A stretch of DNA of 64,000 bases from Escherichia phage AugustSocin (MZ501052); one strand, 5' to 3'; shown: positions 42,636 to 62,683, counted from the stretch's first letter. Made by a program: numbers and translations. Notes: a model not told the origin generated them from the sequence alone.

Positions 42636-44318
42636 TTAAACCATTACAGTAAATCGACCAACTTTCTTCATTTGAAGATGCTGACCATATTCTTGTGGGT
42701 CATGGTCTTTATGCGAAATTATAAAAACATTAGTATTTTTCATTGAATTTATAATATTCGCTACACCTTTAATACCTTCGGCATCAAATGACCCATCAAA
42801 CACTTCATCGAGTATTAATGTACTAATACTAACACCAGATACAATAGAAGCAATATCACGCCAAGTAAATAAAAGAGCAATATCAATTCTTGCCTTTTCA
42901 CCTTCACTAAATGAAGCATAACTAAAATCTTCACGACCACGGGATTTAATTGTCTCATTAAATTCTTCATCTAATGTAAACACATAATCCGCTTCCATTA
43001 TTTTAAGATAATGGTTAATCTGCTTATTAAATAATGGAATGTACTTTTTAATAATAGCACCTTTAATACCAGAATCTTTGAGCATATCAGTCAAAATTCC
43101 TCGGTGGTATTTTTCCATTACTAAATTAGTTTTTGTCTTAACAATTTTATCAAGTTCTTCTTGAAGCAGTGCTATTTCATCAGCATGGTCAATAAACTCA
43201 GAAGATGCTTTTTCTATAGCTGCTTTAACTTTTTTAGCTTTATCTACCGTCGTGATTAGAGATTGCTTTTTATTGCGAATATCATTTGCCAACGACTGCT
43301 GGGTTTTAATATTATCTCGGTATTCATCAACAAGAACTTTTAAATTATCACGATGTGTTGAAAGCTGTTCAAACGAATGCGTACATTCAGAAACTTTATC
43401 TTTAATTTTAGAAACAACTTTATCACCTGAACTTAATTGTGACAAGCAGGTTGGACATAATCCGCCTTCGTGATACATATTAATGACTTTATTATACGAG
43501 TCAATTTTTGATTTAATTAAAACTGCTTCTTGACCGATTTTATTAAATGCATCAGTCGGGTCTTCATCTAAAACAATATTAACTAATCTTTCATTAGCTT
43601 CTTCTATTTCCGATTTTAGCGTTCTAGCTTCTTTTGCCAAATCATCATACATATTTTGCAGACGAGTAAGGTTGTCACCAGTTAATTTTTTCTGGCGTTC
43701 AACGTTATCATTATATATTTTAATTTGTTGGATAATACTATCTTTTTTAACATCAAGCACTTGGTTCTGCGAATTTAATTCGCGTATTAGTGCTTTATTA
43801 AGCTTATCCATTTCAGCTAATGTTCCTACCTCAAGCAGGTCTTCCACAAGCTTTCTTCGCGCAGGGGTCGACAAACCCATGAAAGGGGTATACCCTGCTG
43901 TACCAAGGACAACAATCTGCTTGAAACTGGCATATGACATTCCGATAAGCTGTTCAAATTCTGCTTGGAAATCTTTACTGCTGGCAGATTCATTAAGACG
44001 TGTACCGTTAACGGTGATTTCGAAAACGTTTGGTTTTTGTCCTCTTTTGATATAGTACTTTTTCTCATCATATTCCATCCACAGTTCAACTAAAAGTTCT
44101 TTCTTATTTGTGCTGTTTATTAATTGACCTTTCTTTACATCACGAAATGGTTTGCCAAAAAGCCCAAATGTGATGGCTTCTAACATAGTAGACTTACCAC
44201 CGCCATTTCGTCCAGTAATAAGAGTTTTTTGAACCTTATCTAGTTGAATGTCAATAGGATTTCCACCTACTGACATTATATTTTGATACCTAACTCGGTT
44301 TAGTTTAAAATTCTTCAC
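42636..44318 (-). CDS. 46: recombination endonuclease subunit gp46 (Rad50/SbcC-like)
   Basis: 560-aa ORF; Walker A GRNGGGKST, coiled-coil middle, CPTC zinc hook. Confidence 0.92.
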   Translation of the reverse strand: MKNFKLNRVRYQNIMSVGGNPIDIQLDKVQKTLITGRNGGGKSTMLEAITFGLFGKPFRDVKKGQLINSTNKKELLVELWMEYDEKKYYIKRGQKPNVFEITVNGTRLNESASSKDFQAEFEQLIGMSYASFKQIVVLGTAGYTPFMGLSTPARRKLVEDLLEVGTLAEMDKLNKALIRELNSQNQVLDVKKDSIIQQIKIYNDNVERQKKLTGDNLTRLQNMYDDLAKEARTLKSEIEEANERLVNIVLDEDPTDAFNKIGQEAVLIKSKIDSYNKVINMYHEGGLCPTCLSQLSSGDKVVSKIKDKVSECTHSFEQLSTHRDNLKVLVDEYRDNIKTQQSLANDIRNKKQSLITTVDKAKKVKAAIEKASSEFIDHADEIALLQEELDKIVKTKTNLVMEKYHRGILTDMLKDSGIKGAIIKKYIPLFNKQINHYLKIMEADYVFTLDEEFNETIKSRGREDFSYASFSEGEKARIDIALLFTWRDIASIVSGVSISTLILDEVFDGSFDAEGIKGVANIINSMKNTNVFIISHKDHDPQEYGQHLQMKKVGRFTVMV

Positions 44319-44575: not shown

Positions 44576-44762
44576 TATCTAAAATGTTGAAGTTAAAAGA
44601 TACAGCCCAGTCAGTGCAGACTGTAACCTTTTTAATACAATTATCTTCAACCTCTAGCGGTTCAAACCAATATTCAATAATTTCTTTATGACCAATATCA
44701 TCTTTTACTTCGCATTCAAAATGCTGACTCATCATAACATTTTTAAATTCATCAAAAGTCAT
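44499..44762 (-). CDS. hypothetical protein (87 aa or shorter)
   Basis: ORF-track ORF; 77-nt overlap with the downstream ORF suggests an internal start. Confidence 0.4.
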   Translation of the reverse strand: MTFDEFKNVMMSQHFECEVKDDIGHKEIIEYWFEPLEVEDNCIKKVTVCTDWAVSFNFNILDNDTPKSLRDMAVSCIKDAYCEVFDI

Positions 44763-45778
44763 TGTGTTGCCTCTACATATAACTGATTTGCATATTGAAT
44801 AAGTGCTTCACGGTCAGAATCAGTGATGTCTGGAATTGCATTAATGTATTCTTCCATCAACGTCTGAAGCGATTGAACTTCAACTTCTTCACTATCATCT
44901 GACCCGACAGAGTTATCAATCTTTGACACAACTCGTAATGAATGCACAACTTTTTCTAGTTCAGATTCGAACTTCGTCAGATTTTTGTCTACTTCAGTTA
45001 CTATAACACGTACTGATAGATTTGTAAAATCTTTATAGTCAATTTTTCCTTTAAATGGATAATGAATTCTACGATGCCAGGTAGTATTGTTTGGAATAAA
45101 TTCCATTCGTTCTGTTTCTGTATCAAACATCCAGAACCCACGAGGGTCATTCTCGTCACCTGCAGTTAGTGTCCATGGTGTCCCAATATATCTGACGTTA
45201 GCAGCCTCAGAGATAGTATGGAAGTGACCAGACCACACTTCTTTATAAGTCTTAAGGAAATCAGGTTCAAGACCATGAGATTTCATTCCTTTATAAAAAT
45301 AAAATCCGTTCAGTTCCCAGTGACCAACGCAAAAAGAAGCAGATGAAGTTTTGATGTGTTCAAGAATTTCACCAGTATTTTCTTCACACATCCAAGGAAT
45401 TAAATCAATTAAACATCCGTCAAAATCTACTGTAGTAGGCTTATCATACACTTTAACATTAGGATATTTAGCCAAAAGCTCAGTAGAGGCATTTGGATGC
45501 ATTACATTTTTATAGTGGAGATCGTGATTTCCTACAATAGTATGTAATGTAATTCCAGCATCATCAAGCGTTTGAACTATTTCACGAGCGAACTCCATAG
45601 TTTTATGTGTGATTGCTTTTCGCACATCAAAAATATCACCATATTGAATCCATACAGTAATTCCATTTTTCTTAGAATATTCTATCGCTTGCTTAATTCC
45701 ATCAATTTGAATACCGCGAATCCACTCATCATCGGCTTTAACGCCTAAATGCCAATCACCTAAATTTAAAATTTTCAT
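44759..45778 (-). CDS. 47: recombination endonuclease subunit gp47 (Mre11/SbcD-like)
   Basis: 339-aa ORF; phosphoesterase motifs (GDWH, GNHD). Confidence 0.92.
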   Translation of the reverse strand: MKILNLGDWHLGVKADDEWIRGIQIDGIKQAIEYSKKNGITVWIQYGDIFDVRKAITHKTMEFAREIVQTLDDAGITLHTIVGNHDLHYKNVMHPNASTELLAKYPNVKVYDKPTTVDFDGCLIDLIPWMCEENTGEILEHIKTSSASFCVGHWELNGFYFYKGMKSHGLEPDFLKTYKEVWSGHFHTISEAANVRYIGTPWTLTAGDENDPRGFWMFDTETERMEFIPNNTTWHRRIHYPFKGKIDYKDFTNLSVRVIVTEVDKNLTKFESELEKVVHSLRVVSKIDNSVGSDDSEEVEVQSLQTLMEEYINAIPDITDSDREALIQYANQLYVEATQ

Positions 45779-54290: not shown

Positions 54291-54776
54291 TCAAGTATTG
54301 TAAAACATTTGATTCAATCGCTTATATTGCCGAATCTTTTGGTCAGAAAAAGAAATTTGGGTTTCAAGCCATTCAATATATTCTGCCGCAGCTTGCATCA
54401 AATTTCCTTCATAGCCATCGTTATTTTCTTGTGCAGCTAATTTAGCTAATGCGTACGGAATACGTTCACCTTGAAAATCGGCTTTAGGCTTCTGAACAAC
54501 TTGATTAGTTCTCTCTACAACTTCCTCGATTTCACCATTTTCTACTGATTCAGTATTCCACAAGCACCAATACGCAGTTGGCTTATCGTAGATGTTAATA
54601 ATCTTTCCATCAGAAAGTTCAATTTCAATAATTCCAGTATCAGGTTCTATATCATCTTCACATTCTTTTACAAGTTCACGAACTTTAAAGACAGTACCTG
54701 CACTAAGTTCCGGCCAGTAATTACATAGCTCTTTATCAGCACGATTAATTCTAAACCACTTATCTACTGTAATCAT
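54291..54776 (-). CDS. pin: Pin (inhibitor of host Lon protease)
   Basis: 161 aa from ATG MITVDK with GGAG RBS; the track ORF uses an upstream TTG. Confidence 0.6.
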   Translation of the reverse strand: MITVDKWFRINRADKELCNYWPELSAGTVFKVRELVKECEDDIEPDTGIIEIELSDGKIINIYDKPTAYWCLWNTESVENGEIEEVVERTNQVVQKPKADFQGERIPYALAKLAAQENNDGYEGNLMQAAAEYIEWLETQISFSDQKIRQYKRLNQMFYNT

Positions 54777-55069
54777 GTCCCATCTCCATATCAATTAAGT
54801 CATTTATCGTTGGTTCATTATACATCGTTTCTTCATCAGTGTAAACCGGTTCTTCCGGCTCTGGCTCTACAGTTTCCCATCTAGCCGCCCACCAAGGTTT
54901 AACCCCGAAGCTTATTAAGTTCTTCATCATCAATCCAGGATTCTAGTCCTGTTGGCAGGTCACATTCAATTTCCCAAAGAAGTTCTTCAATTTTCTGAAG
55001 ACGATCTAGTTCTTCGGCTGGAATAGTAACCATTGACGGAGTTCGTGATACATTAATATCGTAAATCAT
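54760..55069 (-). other. two overlapping short ORFs (55 and 56 aa) that may be one gene split by a frameshift at a G4 run
   Basis: ORF A MIYDINVS...NKLRG stops at TAA; frame +1 continues VKPWWAARWETVEPEPEEP... to the pin start. Confidence 0.3.
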
Positions 55070-55071
55070 AT

Positions 55072-55287
55072 TTACCCCAATTTAGCCATACAATCGCCGT
55101 ATTTCCACTTAGAAATAGACTTTTCACCATTAGAATAATAAACTTCGAGTTTAGCACGATTATTTTTAATTTGAATAACCTTGGCTGTCATCAAAGTTCC
55201 ATACCCATAATAAACTGCAACTTCATCACCTACATATACCGCGCTTCCGCGGTAATCGTGAATATAGTCAGTTCCTTCGAGCATCAT
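55072..55287 (-). CDS. hypothetical protein (71 aa)
   Basis: ORF-track ORF; overlaps the nrdC stop. Confidence 0.45.
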   Translation of the reverse strand: MMLEGTDYIHDYRGSAVYVGDEVAVYYGYGTLMTAKVIQIKNNRAKLEVYYSNGEKSISKWKYGDCMAKLG

Positions 55288-55547
55288 TTAAAATATTCTC
55301 GCAGTTGGTCAAATCCACCAATATGACTTCCATCAGGAGCAAATACCTGGGGCATTGTCAAGCCGATTTGAGTATCACGACCTAGTTTAGTCAGAAGCTC
55401 AGCGATTTTCTCATCATCAAAAACACCTTTTTCCGGCATAATGTTGATAAATTCAAACGGCTGTTTCTTCACGGTCAAAAGACGTTTTGCATTATCACAA
55501 TACACACATTTATGAATGTTGCTATCATAACCATATACTTTAAACAT
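55284..55547 (-). CDS. nrdC: thioredoxin/glutaredoxin NrdC
   Basis: 87-aa ORF with CVYC active-site motif. Confidence 0.85.
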   Translation of the reverse strand: MFKVYGYDSNIHKCVYCDNAKRLLTVKKQPFEFINIMPEKGVFDDEKIAELLTKLGRDTQIGLTMPQVFAPDGSHIGGFDQLREYFK

Positions 55548-55793: not shown

Positions 55794-56183
55794 TTAATCC
55801 AAAATATTATTAGGCATTGGTTGAACACTCACAAGTTCTTTAAAGAACTCAGTAGAGTCAGGCAATTTAACCATTTCCGGAGCATGCTTACTGAATTTAT
55901 GTTTACATTGACGGCATTTATATTCAAGCTCTGGTTTACGCCAGTTAATCAATTGAACTTGTTCAGTACCGCATTCAGGGCAATTAGGAACGTTTTTAGA
56001 AGCTCTTTCACGTCGTTCAACCATAGCCATAATAGCATCCCATGCTGGAGGTTTAAAATCTAAATCGTCGCAACCGTGAATCTTTCCACGCATTTCCATA
56101 TCATCTTCCTCACCAGCCATAATAATTTTAATTAGACTAGAATTACTTGAAGCTGCAATGTCTTCTAATAAACACTTTTTCAT
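55794..56183 (-). CDS. hypothetical protein (129 aa) with C-terminal zinc-ribbon-like CPECG...CRQC
   Basis: ORF-track ORF. Confidence 0.5.
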
Positions 56184-57106
56184 TTCAGTACCTCAATAGC
56201 ATCACGTAAACCATTTGCTTTGGCGGTTAAAGCCTTAAGAACTTTAGTATGCTCTTCAATTTGTTTTTCAACTTCAATCAAACGAGCATTGAGATATTCG
56301 CGTTCTTCTTTCATAGTATCATTTCCATGATTGGATTTTGGTGTAGGTTTAAATTCACTAGGGTCCTTTAATTTAATAACAAATTTAGTTTCAAACAGTG
56401 AAAGACCATAATTCGTATTATCATCAAAGGATTTGACTACATCCATATCAGATAATAACACGCGCAAATTATAAGCCAAAGAACTAATAGTTTCATTGTG
56501 TTTATTAGCTTCGAGTGGTTTCATATACGGAAGATTTTTATATATCTCATGCGGAGCGCAAACGATAATTGACAATTCAAATTGTCCATTCTGGGACGAT
56601 GGAATGAATTTAGCCGTAACCCAGTCTTTTACATTCACATTAATAGTACGGTTATCACCATGACAAAACAGTCTACGAGAATGCTTAAAAAGCATATTCA
56701 CGTTATTATTGAATTCGTGTGAAAATTCACTAGCAAATTTTTCTTTACTATCTTTAGAAAACCATTCTTCTAAATAAGTTCTTTTCACGTCATTAATAAT
56801 ATTAAATGTAACAACACTAGCATTTGATACATTAGTCTTAATGTAGCTTGGATACATAAATTTTTTAACATTATTAACAGCTATCACAGAAGATAGTAAT
56901 CGGGAACGTTTGAACCACTCGAGCAAAGAACCAAGAGAATGTGAATACGCATTTTGTGTATCTTTACAAATATGGTTTTCCCATCCAATATAGTCTAAAA
57001 AATCACGAAGAATATTATTGATTACTGCTCTGTGTCCAATCTGATAATTACGATGTTTAGTAATAAGACTGTCAAAATAATCAATATAATGTTTACGAGT
57101 TTTCAT
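56180..57106 (-). CDS. hypothetical protein (308 aa) with C-terminal coiled coil
   Basis: ORF-track ORF; member of a tandem family. Confidence 0.55.
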   Translation of the reverse strand: MKTRKHYIDYFDSLITKHRNYQIGHRAVINNILRDFLDYIGWENHICKDTQNAYSHSLGSLLEWFKRSRLLSSVIAVNNVKKFMYPSYIKTNVSNASVVTFNIINDVKRTYLEEWFSKDSKEKFASEFSHEFNNNVNMLFKHSRRLFCHGDNRTINVNVKDWVTAKFIPSSQNGQFELSIIVCAPHEIYKNLPYMKPLEANKHNETISSLAYNLRVLLSDMDVVKSFDDNTNYGLSLFETKFVIKLKDPSEFKPTPKSNHGNDTMKEEREYLNARLIEVEKQIEEHTKVLKALTAKANGLRDAIEVLK

Positions 57107-57158
57107 GTTCTTCTCACTTGGTTAATGATTTATACTCCGAGCCATCCTTGGCTTTAAA

Positions 57159-58160
57159 TTACTTAATTAACTGTAAAGCTTGTTCCAGACGATCAAGACG
57201 ATTAACAGATTCTTCCCAAATCCTTTTAGCCTGCTCATATTCTTTCTGCGCTTTATTAGAAATTTCTAGAACTTCTTTATAAGCTTTTTCTAGTGCAATA
57301 ACTTCTGGACGAATTTCTACCGGTTCAGGTGAATCATCAAGATTATCCATTAGTTCCTCAAGGGTAGTTTCTTCTTTAGGAGTATTCACAATTTCATCAC
57401 ATTTTTGTTGATAAATTTCTTTATCAGTAGGTGAGTACGCGCACTTTACTTCACGAAGACTAATTACAATTTTATATCCTTCCCAACCACCCATATTTTT
57501 GAAAGGATATGTATGAATACTTTTTACAGTTTCCATACAATCCAAAGCCGTCTCTAATTGATGAGTTATAGTGCTAGCAATTGAGAAAAATTTATTAATA
57601 TTCTTTTGGTTAGCTTCTGGTGTAAAAAATTCATAATTCACAAAAATAGCTGCTTTATTTTTATCGAGTTCATATTCTTTTATGATAATCATATCAGAAG
57701 CCAAAGGATGAATTTGACGATAATCGCCATAACATAATTTAGAAGCTGATTTTAGAATTTGCTTTTTGAAAAGTCTGAAATTACTAATCCAACGACGAGT
57801 AAAAATATTCTTAGGGTCTTCTTTGATATTAAGATGATAAGAATTAACATCACCGAACCAATTGTATCCTATTACACCTTTAGTTCGTTTAATTTCTTTC
57901 CCAAAATTACCAAGAATATCCCGATTAACCAAATATGAAAGAAGACGAGACCCTTTAAAGATTATCTTAATATCATCTTTATCTACACGGCTAGAAATTT
58001 CACGAACTTCATGAATAAATTTACTGGAAGAAACAATACTTGCATCAATACTGCTGAGCCATTGATTGATAATAGAAAGAACAGCGTTCTGACTAGACAT
58101 GGGTTTAACTTTATCATCAATAACGCTATTGAATGATTTGATATATTCGTTACGAGTCAT
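57159..58160 (-). CDS. hypothetical protein (about 333 aa) with C-terminal coiled coil
   Basis: internal ATG MTRNEY downstream of an early promoter; the track ORF starts at TTG inside the promoter. Confidence 0.55.
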   Translation of the reverse strand: MTRNEYIKSFNSVIDDKVKPMSSQNAVLSIINQWLSSIDASIVSSSKFIHEVREISSRVDKDDIKIIFKGSRLLSYLVNRDILGNFGKEIKRTKGVIGYNWFGDVNSYHLNIKEDPKNIFTRRWISNFRLFKKQILKSASKLCYGDYRQIHPLASDMIIIKEYELDKNKAAIFVNYEFFTPEANQKNINKFFSIASTITHQLETALDCMETVKSIHTYPFKNMGGWEGYKIVISLREVKCAYSPTDKEIYQQKCDEIVNTPKEETTLEELMDNLDDSPEPVEIRPEVIALEKAYKEVLEISNKAQKEYEQAKRIWEESVNRLDRLEQALQLIK

Positions 58161-58189
58161 AATAATCTCCTCAGTAGAAAGTAAGAACA

Positions 58190-58219
58190 TTATACCACAT
58201 CCTTGTGGCAATGTAAACT
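58190..58219 (-). promoter_or_regulatory. T4-type early promoter
   Basis: -10 TATAAT, 18-nt spacer, -35 GTTTAC. Confidence 0.5.
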
Positions 58220-59243
58220 AGTTCAGTGCATTTAGTGCATTGTTCAGTTTAGAACGTTGCTTCGTAAGATTTTTGACTTTTTCTTGAGCTTTTTCCAACA
58301 TCTTTTCAGCTTCTAGCACTTCATTAGTTGCTTTAACGAGTTCATCATCTACTGCCTTAAGGGACTTCTCAATCGCATCTGCATGCCATTTTTCAACAGG
58401 TTTAAGACTCGGATTTTCAATAGGAAGAAAATTCACTTTATTAAATTTCCATGCATCTTTATTACCTGAACTATACATCCAAAATTTAGGATCGTTTGAT
58501 AAGTAATTGGATAAATTTAAATTTAAGTTATCTTGTACTTCCTGCTTTTTCTCTTGCGGGACTTCGTCCTTTCTCAAAAAATCATATTTAAATGAAACAA
58601 CCATATCAAGTTCATATGTTGTTGTGTCTAATTTAAATCGTTCAAAACGAGGTAAAATCTTAGATTGAACAGCAGCAACAACATCCATATACTTAAATGC
58701 TTCTGTCAACTGTGATTTAAGGCATTCACAAATTGAAAGAGAATTTTTAGTATTAGGCTTAAAGCTAATTCGTGCAGTTCTATTATTTTCCTTTAATGGT
58801 CTTACTTCCATCTGAAGAGTATAACCATCAAATTTAAGATTCTTTAAGTTAATATCAGAACCTTTTAATCGACTAGCAGTAGACAAAATTTGCTTTAATT
58901 GTCTACGGAATAGAGCAATAAATCTCCATTCAATACGATAATGATTTGGATTGAAAAATCCAGATGATAAATCGACCTTACTTTGACCAACGCCTTGAAC
59001 AAATAGAGGATTTTTATAATCAATAGTTTTACAGAAATCGGTGAGTTGCTCACGAGCAGTCATTTGTGTAATATACCCAGCTTTACTAAAATGACGTAAC
59101 CATTCACTGCTATTCATATATTTAAAGTGAATATCACGATTAACTTTATCAGGGTCTAAATTATTTTGGCACAAAAATGTCATAACATCACGAGTATAGC
59201 TGGCATTACGAACCATATCTTCAATTTGAGAACGAGTTTTCAT
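58218..59243 (-). CDS. hypothetical protein (341 aa) with C-terminal coiled coil
   Basis: ORF-track ORF. Confidence 0.55.
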   Translation of the reverse strand: MKTRSQIEDMVRNASYTRDVMTFLCQNNLDPDKVNRDIHFKYMNSSEWLRHFSKAGYITQMTAREQLTDFCKTIDYKNPLFVQGVGQSKVDLSSGFFNPNHYRIEWRFIALFRRQLKQILSTASRLKGSDINLKNLKFDGYTLQMEVRPLKENNRTARISFKPNTKNSLSICECLKSQLTEAFKYMDVVAAVQSKILPRFERFKLDTTTYELDMVVSFKYDFLRKDEVPQEKKQEVQDNLNLNLSNYLSNDPKFWMYSSGNKDAWKFNKVNFLPIENPSLKPVEKWHADAIEKSLKAVDDELVKATNEVLEAEKMLEKAQEKVKNLTKQRSKLNNALNALN

Positions 59244-59251
59244 GGTGTTCC

Positions 59252-60160
59252 TTAAGATTTAAGTAAATCAACAATTTTAATTAATTTTTCACGCTCAGAT
59301 TTAGCTTTACTACTCAATCCAGATAGTCTGAAAATTTCATCGTCATACTGTTGAATAGAAATATTCAGCTCTTCAATTTGCTTATTAAAATAATCAATTT
59401 GTTCAGAATGTTTTTCGTTACTACGAACTGGTACAGGTTTTGTAGGTAATTTAGATGAACTGGATTCATCCGGGCGATAAATTAAAATACAACTTGAACC
59501 AATCGGGCATTTTGCACCAGACGAATATTCTAATGTTCCGGCTTCTTTTAAAACTTCAAAAGCTAAACAGAGATGATGCCCCATATTAACATAATCTGTA
59601 GAGCGAGCTCTGATATAATAATCATCGCCGCGAATACTAAATTTAAAGCATTTAAGGTCTTCTGTATTATTGGTCTTAAAAATCATTTGTTTATCTAGAC
59701 CTTTAGCTAATCGAGCGCCTAATGCTAATAATCGTCGTTGATTTTCCCACAAATCTGCGATCATTTGGTCAAATGATAATTTCGGCATTAGTCGACCGTA
59801 AAGATCATAGCCTTTATTATAATTGCGAAGAATTTCACTTGCATTAATACGAGACAATGCTCCAATTTTATTAAGGGCTTTCATGATGCGATTAGATAAA
59901 CCCATTCCAGACCCATTTGTTCGCTGTAAATGTTTTTCTAATCCAAATCCAATATCAACTTTAAACTTATCTAAAATTTCTGCATGAACATCTCTGTCAA
60001 TAACATTTAAATTTAGTACTGGGTTAAATCTATGAAAAAATTTATCTGGCTCTCCACGACGAAGTACAGTCCATTCATTCAATTTTTTATTAACTAAAGA
60101 TTTAATTACTGCATTGACATTATTAATTACGACTGACATATTTTCCTCACTCAATTTCAA
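59252..60160 (-). CDS. hypothetical protein (302 aa) with C-terminal coiled coil
   Basis: ORF-track ORF. Confidence 0.55.
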   Translation of the reverse strand: MKLSEENMSVVINNVNAVIKSLVNKKLNEWTVLRRGEPDKFFHRFNPVLNLNVIDRDVHAEILDKFKVDIGFGLEKHLQRTNGSGMGLSNRIMKALNKIGALSRINASEILRNYNKGYDLYGRLMPKLSFDQMIADLWENQRRLLALGARLAKGLDKQMIFKTNNTEDLKCFKFSIRGDDYYIRARSTDYVNMGHHLCLAFEVLKEAGTLEYSSGAKCPIGSSCILIYRPDESSSSKLPTKPVPVRSNEKHSEQIDYFNKQIEELNISIQQYDDEIFRLSGLSSKAKSEREKLIKIVDLLKS

Positions 60161-60554
60161 TTTTACTAAATATACAGAATAAGATGGAACAGACTATATA
60201 AGCACCGCATACAGATTGAACTAATACCATTCCAAAGAACCAAACAATATTATCAAACAATGTCTGTTTTACGTCGAAAGGACGTAAACTTACAGTAATA
60301 TTATCGCCTTTTTCTATTGATGAATACATCTCTGGGGAAATATATTCGCTAAATCTATAACCGTCTTTGAGTTCATATACGGCAATAAACGATAAACTAG
60401 ACCCCTTTCCTTGAGTTCCTGTAAGGGTATTAACTACAGTAACATCATAATCTTTATAATGCATATAATCATTAATAGCATAATAACCATATGCAATTGC
60501 TATACATAAACAACATATCAATAAATTCAATCTTTTAATTATCAACTGTTTCAT
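60147..60554 (-). CDS. hypothetical membrane protein (135 aa)
   Basis: two hydrophobic segments at N- and C-termini. Confidence 0.5.
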   Translation of the reverse strand: MKQLIIKRLNLLICCLCIAIAYGYYAINDYMHYKDYDVTVVNTLTGTQGKGSSLSFIAVYELKDGYRFSEYISPEMYSSIEKGDNITVSLRPFDVKQTLFDNIVWFFGMVLVQSVCGAYIVCSILFCIFSKIEIE

Positions 60555-60609
60555 AATAATCTCAATTAAAAGGGCTTAGAACCATTATACCATCCTTGGT
60601 ATAAAGCGG

Positions 60610-61137
60610 TTATGCGAGTACCGTCTTTAACCGTTCTTCAAACTTCTGAAGAGTATTCTGGCGTTCAGCTCTTTGCTTTTTGTAAGTTTCAATACGCTCT
60701 GAAATGAGAGCGTATCGTTCATTTACTGATTCTTTCATAAAATCAGGAATTTCACGAGAAGCTTTAATCTCGTCAAATTTATCAATAACAGCTTGCTCTT
60801 CAGCAATTAAGTTATCATACATCAAAATATCTTTCTTGATGAACTCAATATCTTCTTGAGTTACACGAGATAATTTAGATGCTTTATCCTTTTTGTACTG
60901 TTCGTTAGTATCACGAGACCAGTGTAATGTACGATTTTTATTCGTATTTTTGTAAATTTCTACAATACCAATCTCATCGATAATAACGATCCAATTCCAA
61001 CGAGATTTATAAACTTGTCCTCCATCAACCGTGATTTCACCACCGATTGAGATGTCATTAAAGAACTTACTTTGTGCTTCAGATTTAAATTTACCATCAT
61101 TGTAGTTTACCAAGTTGAAAATATCTTTAGCGTTCAT
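60610..61137 (-). CDS. hypothetical protein (175 aa) with C-terminal coiled coil
   Basis: ORF-track ORF; GGAGGAACAGAAA RBS; early promoter upstream. Confidence 0.55.
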   Translation of the reverse strand: MNAKDIFNLVNYNDGKFKSEAQSKFFNDISIGGEITVDGGQVYKSRWNWIVIIDEIGIVEIYKNTNKNRTLHWSRDTNEQYKKDKASKLSRVTQEDIEFIKKDILMYDNLIAEEQAVIDKFDEIKASREIPDFMKESVNERYALISERIETYKKQRAERQNTLQKFEERLKTVLA

Positions 61138-61165: not shown

Positions 61166-61195
61166 ATAGTACCACAGAGGAACAGTCTTGTAAAC
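61166..61195 (-). promoter_or_regulatory. T4-type early promoter
   Basis: -10 TACTAT, 18-nt spacer, -35 GTTTAC. Confidence 0.55.
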
Positions 61196-61197
61196 CA

Positions 61198-61512
61198 CTA
61201 AAAGAAACTTCTTTCACAATTTTTTCCACTGAACCACGCGCTAACCGCTTTCTTAGTCTCAGGAGCAGTGTTATCCATAAACCATTCAAAGGCAGCCTTT
61301 TTATGATTCTGGAGGGCTTCTCGGGCTTTAATCTGCTCACGGTCTATTAACACTAACATATGAGCCTTTCTTGTCACCATGGGCTTCTTATGATTTTTTG
61401 AATACTCCCAATCATTTGTCCAACGCATTGTCGTTGCGAACTGATGAACCGCGTCTTTAATTTTAGTTTCGTAAATTTCACGAGCCTTTGAGTATAACAT
61501 CACTACCTCCAT
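61198..61512 (-). CDS. hypothetical protein (104 aa)
   Basis: ORF-track ORF. Confidence 0.45.
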   Translation of the reverse strand: MEVVMLYSKAREIYETKIKDAVHQFATTMRWTNDWEYSKNHKKPMVTRKAHMLVLIDREQIKAREALQNHKKAAFEWFMDNTAPETKKAVSAWFSGKNCERSFF

Positions 61513-61601
61513 TTACCAGTTTAATTCTAATCATCTTTTTGATGGCAGTCCATATAATCTATTTCTGAACTGCCTTTTTGTCATAGAAGTCCTCTTATGA
61601 A

Positions 61602-62570
61602 TTATTTCAGAAGAGTAACCTCAGCGATTTCTTCCCAACCGTTTTTGTCGGTCATAATAAAGTCAGCAAGATAAAGAGCAGTACGCAGTGAAACATTACG
61701 TAAACGATTAACATTGACTTTCATCCATGATAATGCTTTATAAGTTTCTTCATCAGAAAGACCGCGCTTTTGCATCATGTCAGTTGAAAGAATAACATCT
61801 TCAACCCTGACCATAATTTCTTCATTAGTGTGAACACCCAAATCCAAATAAACTGAGCGGGACACTAATGCTTGTAAATGTGGAGCAAGTTTAGTACCAC
61901 GGTCTAATTCGCGGTCAATGTCAACGTTTGTGATAAAAACAATCGTTCCTTTAAATTCAAACTCACGCTCAATGCCTTTTTCTTCTAAGTAAGAAGATGC
62001 AGTGCTCCAGCAGACTTTACGGGTCTCTCCAGTGTCCAGAGCAGCTTTCAGAAGATTAAGAATGTCCATATCAGAGAAAACATCCACATCATCAATCAAA
62101 AGGACAGAATTCTCTTCACGATTATTCCAAAGCTGTTCATAAAGACCAATACCAGAGATTTTACCATTAATGCTTTTATACTCAATGTATCCAATATCAT
62201 TTGCTTTATTTAAAGCTTTATCTAAAGAATACGTTTTACCAATACCTGCTGCTCCCGAGATAATTAATGAACGAATGTTTCCGTTAATAATACCATTCGT
62301 CATCATTCCCATAACATTAAATCTTTTATTAATGCGGGTTTTCATATCTTCATACGATTCTTTAACTTCTTCAACTTTTACACCATCATATGAAATGTCT
62401 GATTTGTAAACCCAAACACCGCGACGTTTACCGTCAATTTCAACAAAAACTTTACCATCTCCTTGTGCATCTACCGGAGCATTATCCGGGAACCATTCGC
62501 CTAAGAGCTCAAAAGTTCCAGAGATTTCTTTACCGAAGTAGATACCCTTATTGATAGTTACAGTTTTCAT
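61602..62570 (-). CDS. putative P-loop ATPase (AAA-like)
   Basis: Walker A GAAGIGKT and Walker B-like VLLIDDVD; start at MKTVTINK with GGAGAATAAA RBS. Confidence 0.55.
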   Translation of the reverse strand: MKTVTINKGIYFGKEISGTFELLGEWFPDNAPVDAQGDGKVFVEIDGKRRGVWVYKSDISYDGVKVEEVKESYEDMKTRINKRFNVMGMMTNGIINGNIRSLIISGAAGIGKTYSLDKALNKANDIGYIEYKSINGKISGIGLYEQLWNNREENSVLLIDDVDVFSDMDILNLLKAALDTGETRKVCWSTASSYLEEKGIEREFEFKGTIVFITNVDIDRELDRGTKLAPHLQALVSRSVYLDLGVHTNEEIMVRVEDVILSTDMMQKRGLSDEETYKALSWMKVNVNRLRNVSLRTALYLADFIMTDKNGWEEIAEVTLLK

Positions 62571-62663: not shown

Positions 62664-62683
62664 AGGGAGCCCGAAGGCTCCCT
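62664..62683 (-). terminator. tetraloop hairpin downstream of the nucleotidyltransferase-like gene
   Basis: GGGAGCC-CGAA-GGCTCCC with A/T-rich flanks. Confidence 0.5.

Follow-up and report, generated by a model that had tools for sequence, protein, structure and literature searches.

The 64,000-nucleotide stretch of Escherichia phage AugustSocin (MZ501052) analysed here, referred to below as the window, carries on its minus strand a row of genes among which nrdC.3, nrdC.4, nrdC.5 and, as a probable fourth, nrdC.6 form a paralogous family known to date from T4-like phages only. The proteins of this family are built from a fast-diverging N-terminal alpha/beta domain of approximately 220-250 residues, a low-complexity linker, and a C-terminal heptad helix of 40-56 residues. 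Together with published activities of two genes in the row, these relationships lead us to infer that the region is part of an early, non-essential accessory counter-defence island that T-even phages carry between gene 49 and nrdC.11, and they make nrdC.3, nrdC.4 and nrdC.6 candidate inhibitors of host defences. An initial examination of the DNA (the sequence-only reading) had described five open reading frames (ORFs) with heptad-rich tails as an array of early genes, and all five are present. Based on the annotation of the matching genes in phage RB51, they correspond to nrdC.3 (56180..57106, minus strand, 308 aa, phrog_1435), nrdC.4 (57159..58160, minus strand, 333 aa, phrog_1435, assigned to PF26897 in the precomputed annotation), nrdC.5 (58218..59243, minus strand, 341 aa, matching Pfam DUF7235, PF23882, over its full length with an E-value of 3e-122), nrdC.6 (59252..60139, minus strand, 295 aa, assigned to PF26899 in the precomputed annotation) and nrdC.8 (60610..61137, minus strand, 175 aa). 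The fourth ORF had been drawn as 59252..60160. The gene exists; its start, however, is most likely the ATG at 60139 rather than the TTG at 60160, as judged from the GAGGA Shine-Dalgarno sequence upstream of this ATG and from the nrdC.6 homologues, which begin at the same place. With the start moved, the protein is 295 aa long instead of 302.

The relationship among nrdC.3, nrdC.4 and nrdC.5 was investigated with family alignments, reconstructed from eleven related loci and from homologue searches, that were compared by hhalign. The families of nrdC.3 and nrdC.4, which share a PHROG, match with a probability of 98% (E 1.6e-13), those of nrdC.3 and nrdC.5 match over their full length with 86% (E 4.8e-6), and those of nrdC.4 and nrdC.5 match with 70% (E 3.9e-5). 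A joint MAFFT alignment of the three is collinear, comprising an N-terminal M-x-T-R motif, two central motifs and the tail. Homology of these three genes is thus firm at the level of profile comparison. Pairwise BLASTP is too weak a method for this question: among the five proteins only nrdC.3 versus nrdC.4 is significant, the best E-value within nrdC.3, nrdC.4 and nrdC.5 is 6e-5, and neither nrdC.6 nor nrdC.8 has any BLASTP match to the other array genes. Hence the faint mutual similarity originally ascribed to all five N-terminal parts holds for the first three genes and is not seen by pairwise BLAST for the other two. Likewise, hhalign comparisons of the isolated tails yield no convincing signal (the best is 37%, for nrdC.3 versus nrdC.5), since so few residues do not suffice by themselves to establish homology.

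The fourth gene, nrdC.6, is a probable remote member of the same superfamily, an assignment drawn from a deeper profile and from structural models. When the superfamily profile was enlarged with distant members from the search of representative proteins (see below), it matched the nrdC.6 family with a probability of 94% (E 1.4e-7, 132 columns), and reversed and block-shuffled controls reached at most 1.1%. This link is backed by two independent observations. First, in the AlphaFold2 models, which cover NrdC.5 and NrdC.6 only, the secondary-structure elements follow one order: a pair of helices comes first, then a beta hairpin, a further helix and a second beta hairpin, and after these the linker and the terminal helix. 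Second, Foldseek searches of BFVD with the two models return common neighbours, all uncharacterised proteins of approximately 310-335 residues. These include proteins of Klebsiella phage Mineola (E 1.5e-7 with the NrdC.5 model and 2.5e-4 with the NrdC.6 model), Yersinia phage fHe-Yen9-01 (2.7e-6 and 7.2e-4) and Citrobacter phage Merlin (5.4e-4 and 1e-3). A PDB sequence search with the superfamily profile returned only weak coiled-coil noise, and none of the five array proteins has a match in NCBIfam. The pairwise HHalign comparison suggested at the outset therefore recovers homology among nrdC.3, nrdC.4 and nrdC.5, reaches nrdC.6 with the deeper profile only, and finds none for nrdC.8. The proposal of a diversified paralogous family sharing an oligomerisation-type module accordingly holds for four of the five genes, with nrdC.6 as the probable fourth, and fails for nrdC.8.

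The tails themselves are a consistent feature of all five proteins. Read by eye, each displays hydrophobic residues in an unbroken 3-4-3-4 spacing for 36-50 residues, extending to within the last 2-3 residues of the protein. The heptad tail covers approximately the last 42 residues of NrdC.3, which ends in LRDAIEVLK, and approximately 36 residues of NrdC.8; NrdC.4 ends in LEQALQLIK and NrdC.6 in LIKIVDLLKS. A home-made score, a single-register measure of a and d positions over the last 35 residues, was applied to the 95 ORFs taken as genes in the window. NrdC.5, NrdC.3, NrdC.8, NrdC.4 and NrdC.6 rank 1, 2, 3, 5 and 9, respectively, and composition-preserving shuffles reach the observed scores in 1, 5, 20, 64 and 67 of 5000 trials, in the same order. 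The heptad periodicity of the five tails is real and well beyond chance, as the sequence-only reading had recognised. A sliding 28-residue score agrees, and also ranks highly the proteins encoded at 42636-44318 and 44759-45778, probably gp46 and gp47 to judge from their size and location. T4 gp46 is a known coiled-coil protein, and the high sliding scores of this presumed pair thus serve as a rough sanity check. The tails also have weak Pfam matches to coiled-coil families (DUF4164, CENP-F leucine zipper and V-SNARE_C). Elsewhere in the window, the last 35 residues of pin, a Lon protease inhibitor (54291-54794), are heptad-like too and rank 6 of 95.

Structure prediction, which had been proposed as a check, gives long terminal helices in both modelled proteins. 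The NrdC.5 model consists of a globular alpha/beta domain (residues 1-228), a low-confidence linker (229-283) and a continuous 56-residue helix (285-340), and in the NrdC.6 model the tail is split by a short interruption at SGLSS into two helices (245-271 and 277-294). The tails of the four paralogs share a C-terminal motif, L-x-x-[AI]-[ILV]-x-x-[LI]-[KN], which is found in exactly nrdC.3, nrdC.4, nrdC.5 and nrdC.6 among the 378 ORFs of the window; since these four sequences also served to define the motif, the count is purely descriptive. In the joint alignment the nrdC.5 tail differs from those of nrdC.3 and nrdC.4 by an insertion of exactly 7 residues, and its heptad register is therefore kept.

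This family is very small, since a profile search of 1.84 billion representative proteins yielded only 19 matches, several of them fragments. A scan of IMG/VR with NrdC.5 found only five close relatives. Six distant full-length members were scored for the tail, five from the representative search (P0227, P0233, P0237, P0238 and P0240) along with P0120. All six keep the heptad tail (shuffle p 0.0003-0.01), as does JD18 gp070 (p 0.033), and the end motif is the same or nearly so in five of the six; P0240 and JD18 gp070 have the heptad pattern with a divergent end. Judged from these sequences, the tail is ancestral to the NrdC.3/4/5/6 family. Searches by tblastn and inspection of the fetched loci show that the family occupies a single syntenic slot, flanked by nrdC/nrdC.2 on one side and by nrdC.10/nrdC.11 on the other, with a copy number that varies. 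Tequatrovirus has nrdC.3, nrdC.4, nrdC.5 and nrdC.6 along with nrdC.8. Mosigvirus (ST0) has nrdC.3-like, nrdC.5-like and nrdC.6-like genes with nrdC.8, and both Dhakavirus (VR5 and C6) and Gaprivervirus (UPEC07) have nrdC.4, an nrdC.5-like gene and nrdC.6 with nrdC.8. Klebsiella Jiaodavirus (JD18) has one copy, which directly adjoins its nrdC.2 homologue.

Within this slot the paralogs are diverging quickly. Identity between genera is 24-56% for the four paralogs versus 78-91% for endonuclease VII, NrdC, NrdC.10 and NrdC.11, and the divergence is concentrated in the globular domain: tail and domain identities between genera are 72% versus 55% for nrdC.3, 63% versus 38% for nrdC.4 and 60% versus 31% for nrdC.6. 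Two alleles of nrdC.3 occur among Tequatroviruses that are otherwise approximately 95% identical (the window compared with loci L003, L004 and L006), and these alleles share 59% identity in their N-terminal domains and 86% in their tails. Variable presence and copy number, fast divergence and early-type promoter-like sites, along with the non-essential status recorded in the HIDEN-SEQ tables (see below), give the array an accessory character. Two unusual proteins were also encountered. P0119, a 299-aa protein on a 167-kb contig, is a fusion in which the central part of NrdC.5 runs into the C-terminal half of the alternative NrdC.3 allele; nrdC.4 is missing, and this arrangement suggests recombination between paralogs within the array. 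P0236 (173 aa) carries an unrelated N-terminus, without a match in 50,697 phage records, and an NrdC.5-type tail that differs from that of the window by one substitution in 53 residues. It was considered as a case of natural module shuffling and is not relied on here, being represented by a single 803-bp ENA contig (L013) that may be an assembly chimera.

The function of the array genes had been described as unknown, a statement that is now out of date for two of the five. A T4 clone with compensatory deletions failed to plate on Escherichia coli carrying dsr1 from ECOR17, and T4 nrdC.5 supplied in trans restores plating on this Dsr1 sirtuin defence host (Srikant, Guegler and Laub, eLife 2022, PMC9391042). 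NrdC.5 of the window is 94% identical to T4 NrdC.5. Similarly, bas37_0203 inhibits Druantia type III, and insertions in this gene are depleted on host CFE303 (log2FC -5.80) according to the HIDEN-SEQ preprint (2025, bioRxiv 10.1101/2025.11.20.689424). According to the annotation table of the preprint and to GenBank record MZ501089, bas37_0203 is 528 nt long and is flanked by the orthologs of nrdC.7 and nrdC.9, and its product is identical to NrdC.8 of the window at 171 of 175 residues (98%); its position, length and identity thus make it the nrdC.8 ortholog. Further along the same region, the neighbouring nrdC.1 inhibits Septu according to the literature, and Gp49.2, encoded a few genes away, inhibits OLD (PMC13096335). 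All genes from nrdC.2 to nrdC.11 are classed as non-essential in both T4 and Bas37 (10.1101/2025.11.20.689424). It is because of these activities of nrdC.5, the nrdC.8 ortholog, nrdC.1 and Gp49.2 that the region can be regarded as a counter-defence island in which two of the five array genes have assigned targets.

On balance, we lean towards a picture in which this island includes a set of paralogs that each combine a variable target-binding domain with an oligomerising tail. According to this model, the proteins would be made early in infection and would self-associate through the heptad tail, and the variable domain of each paralog would bind directly to one host immune protein and neutralise it before the trigger of that protein appears. 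Dsr1 is reportedly triggered by the late-made major capsid protein (PMC13581612), and a binder produced early in infection could block or inactivate this sensor ahead of the capsid protein. Trigger mimicry was also considered as the primary model for Dsr1, and was dropped because the reported trigger is the major capsid protein. Expansion in copy number, from one in Klebsiella Jiaodavirus to three or four in the T-even phages of E. coli, together with allelic replacement, would widen the range of defences overcome, such that the array would act as an arsenal that widens host range.

Several observations weigh against this picture. The Bas37 orthologs of nrdC.3 to nrdC.6 (0198-0201) have no fitness effect in the two HIDEN-SEQ host comparisons considered, those on CFT073 and CFE303 (10.1101/2025.11.20.689424), and no counter-defence phenotype has been reported in the literature for nrdC.3, nrdC.4 or nrdC.6. 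The effect of NrdC.5 on Dsr1 could be indirect. The placement of nrdC.6 depends on the alignments used, as a shallower pair gives an hhalign probability of only 4.8%. The NrdC.5 model is of moderate confidence (mean pLDDT 73) and was built from an alignment mixing subfamilies, and the TM-scores of the Foldseek matches are low (0.2-0.5), which may in part be due to the flexible linker and long helix. We would like to emphasize that the weakest links are oligomerisation through the tail and any counter-defence role for nrdC.3, nrdC.4 and nrdC.6.

Two other explanations of the family are unlikely in our estimation, and both concern how its parts might work. In the first, the four paralogs would act as decoys through mimicry of a structural protein of the phage: their core, folded like a tail terminator (lambda gpU), could occupy host sensors for virion proteins. 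Similarity in fold between the paralog core and tail terminator or completion proteins (lambda gpU, T5 p142, DUF3168) was indeed encountered, and it is a resemblance of fold only, as none of 60 family members has a Pfam tail-terminator match. Tail terminators are moreover late, structural proteins lacking a linker or coiled-coil tail, whereas the nrdC genes are non-essential and lie in an early region. The resemblance provides a lead on the origin of such inhibitors.

The second explanation, to which we would give a similarly small chance, holds that the tails are not homo-oligomerisation modules but themselves the functional surface, for example by binding, as a helix, to a helical or coiled-coil segment of a host protein or by pairing one paralog with another. 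The tail is the best-conserved part of the proteins across genera, its last nine residues form a motif common to the four paralogs, as would fit a common partner, and several of the predicted core positions in NrdC.5 are alanine on reading the sequence. However, a common conserved partner fits poorly with fast-diverging domains and with published targets that differ, the present data fit self-association equally well, and the end motif was derived from the same sequences. A bolder variant, which we consider quite improbable, is that the tails with their nine-residue end motif let the four paralogs, and perhaps NrdC.8, form mixed coiled-coil oligomers. The result would be a single early hub showing several defence-binding domains at once, with a core domain possibly recruited from a tail-terminator-like protein. 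If true, the array would be a modular, combinatorial counter-defence platform instead of a set of independent inhibitors.

The same low probability applies to the suggestion that all five genes belong to one paralogous family, in which nrdC.8 would be a shortened member that kept its tail. This scenario is encouraged by the position of the nrdC.8 heptad tail, which is the same relative to the C-terminus, by its location in the same gene row, and by a weak Foldseek match of a 175-aa protein of Klebsiella phage KPV15 to the NrdC.5 model (E 1.3e-3). The KPV15 protein, however, is not established as an nrdC.8 homologue, and its match to the NrdC.6 model has an E-value of 0.35. The nrdC.8 family itself gives hhalign probabilities below 1-8% with every other array family and with the superfamily profile, the superfamily hidden Markov model (HMM) finds no match to nrdC.8 in the window, and the gene has its own PHROG (phrog_2274). 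Its evolutionary rate is also very different, with identity between genera of 69-83% versus 24-56% for the four paralogs. By these comparisons nrdC.8 is not a detectable paralog, and appears instead as an unrelated, more conserved gene with a heptad tail.

Placing the paralog family beside characterised systems indicates what is established and what is added here. The genes are already known as catalogued T4 ORFs, two of them with published functions. NrdC.5 of the window is the ortholog of T4 NrdC.5 (DUF7235), and it shares its architecture of domain, linker and tail with its paralogs nrdC.3, nrdC.4 and, probably, nrdC.6; Dsr1 activity is established for the T4 allele only, and PMC9391042 contains neither the paralogy nor the coiled-coil tail. 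Bas37_0203 occupies the same slot between nrdC.7 and nrdC.9 as NrdC.8 of the window; the preprint gives no nrdC.8 name, domains or mechanism for it, and it has no homology with the NrdC.3-6 family. DSAD1, a phage inhibitor of the sirtuin defence DSR2, resembles NrdC.5, as described in the literature, in being a phage protein directed against a SIR2-domain, NAD+-depleting defence protein that recognises a virion protein. The likeness is one of description only, the targets differ (DSR2 and the tail tube for DSAD1 versus Dsr1 and the capsid protein for NrdC.5), and that description does not make DSAD1 part of a coiled-coil paralog array.

Similar in genomic character are the dmd-tifA-adfA anti-toxin-antitoxin island and the gp49.2/nrdC.1 locus, which likewise bring together early, non-essential accessory genes of small to medium size that evolve quickly. 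Each of them neutralises one host system and can be deleted or, under selection, amplified. Those loci consist of unrelated genes, in contrast to the four adjacent paralogs with a common conserved C-terminal module described here. Recognition of nrdC.3, nrdC.4, nrdC.5 and nrdC.6 as one family was not found in the literature searched or in Pfam, which divides them among three separate families; nor were the conserved coiled-coil tail, the contrast in conservation between tail and domain, or the identity of Bas37_0203 with nrdC.8. The T-even phages serve as the principal model of phage counter-defence, yet most of their accessory genes are without an assigned function. Paralogy with nrdC.5 turns three hypothetical proteins (nrdC.3, nrdC.4 and nrdC.6) into specific candidate inhibitors. 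This family-level link is incremental within a known category and does not represent a new kind of system.

Signals in the DNA are consistent with early expression, as had been proposed for the array. Immediately upstream of nrdC.4, at 58189..58217 on the minus strand, there is a sigma-70/T4-early-type promoter-like site, (G)TTTACA-17-TATAAT with an extended TG, that matches 11 of 12 consensus positions; it is followed by a GAGGAG Shine-Dalgarno sequence and the ATG at 58160. A second promoter-like site, TTTACA-17-TACTAT with a TG extension, is found upstream of nrdC.8 at 61166..61194 on the minus strand (9 of 12 consensus matches). The same TTTACA-17-TACTAT site also precedes nrdC.10, where it is again a consensus match weaker than the nrdC.4 site. 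The literature agrees with this timing, as PMC9391042 uses the wording "early gene". In T4, the Shine-Dalgarno sequence of nrdC.8 is described in the literature as a moderately cleaved RegB site. Also on the minus strand, between nrdC.11 and nrdC.10, a hairpin at 62664-62683 has a perfect 8-bp GC-rich stem (AGGGAGCC-TTCG-GGCTCCCT) followed by a T-run, and resembles an intrinsic terminator located within the row of genes.

The genomic setting of the array is that of a T4-like phage. A 6.1-kb stretch around it matches 622 phage records, nearly all from Tequatrovirus, with RB51 as the best match (96.9%), and the window belongs to a Tequatrovirus. It is AT-rich, with 90 of the 95 ORFs taken as genes on the minus strand. 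On one flank are endonuclease VII (gene 49), pin, nrdC (the true glutaredoxin), nrdC.1 and nrdC.2 (a zinc ribbon), and on the other are nrdC.9, nrdC.10 (a P-loop ATPase) and nrdC.11 (an RlaP-type nucleotidyltransferase). A role for the array genes in nucleotide or redox metabolism, which might be read from the thioredoxin label on many GenBank records of nrdC.3 to nrdC.8 homologues and from one paper that treats nrdC.8 as a nucleotide reductase (PMC13275509), is effectively refuted by the absence of the domain, as none of the five proteins has a Pfam or NCBIfam thioredoxin or glutaredoxin match, the true nrdC is a separate gene (55284-55547), the published phenotypes are in counter-defence, and the label appears to have been propagated from the locus name nrdC.x.

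The row is broken between nrdC.6 and nrdC.8 by nrdC.7 (60147..60554, minus strand, 135 aa, phrog_2547), which encodes a hydrophobic protein without a heptad tail that is not a family member. It is probably a membrane protein and is annotated as "putative membrane protein" in T4-type records. In Mosigvirus ST0 an nrdC.7-like membrane protein with 40% identity (locus L010, 10245-10658) adjoins nrdC instead of lying between nrdC.6 and nrdC.8, and because of this position nrdC.7 can be viewed as a mobile insert and not as part of the array. The neighbouring nrdC.2 (55794-56183) is unusually variable: its zinc-ribbon protein has 129 aa in the window and approximately 104 aa in T4, and of six close relatives compared, three (T4 among them) show an identity of only 60-78%. 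Finally, in RB51 the interval separating nrdC.9 from nrdC.10 contains a seg-like homing endonuclease gene (locus L001, 9090-9809), which is absent from the corresponding interval of the window (61512-61602).

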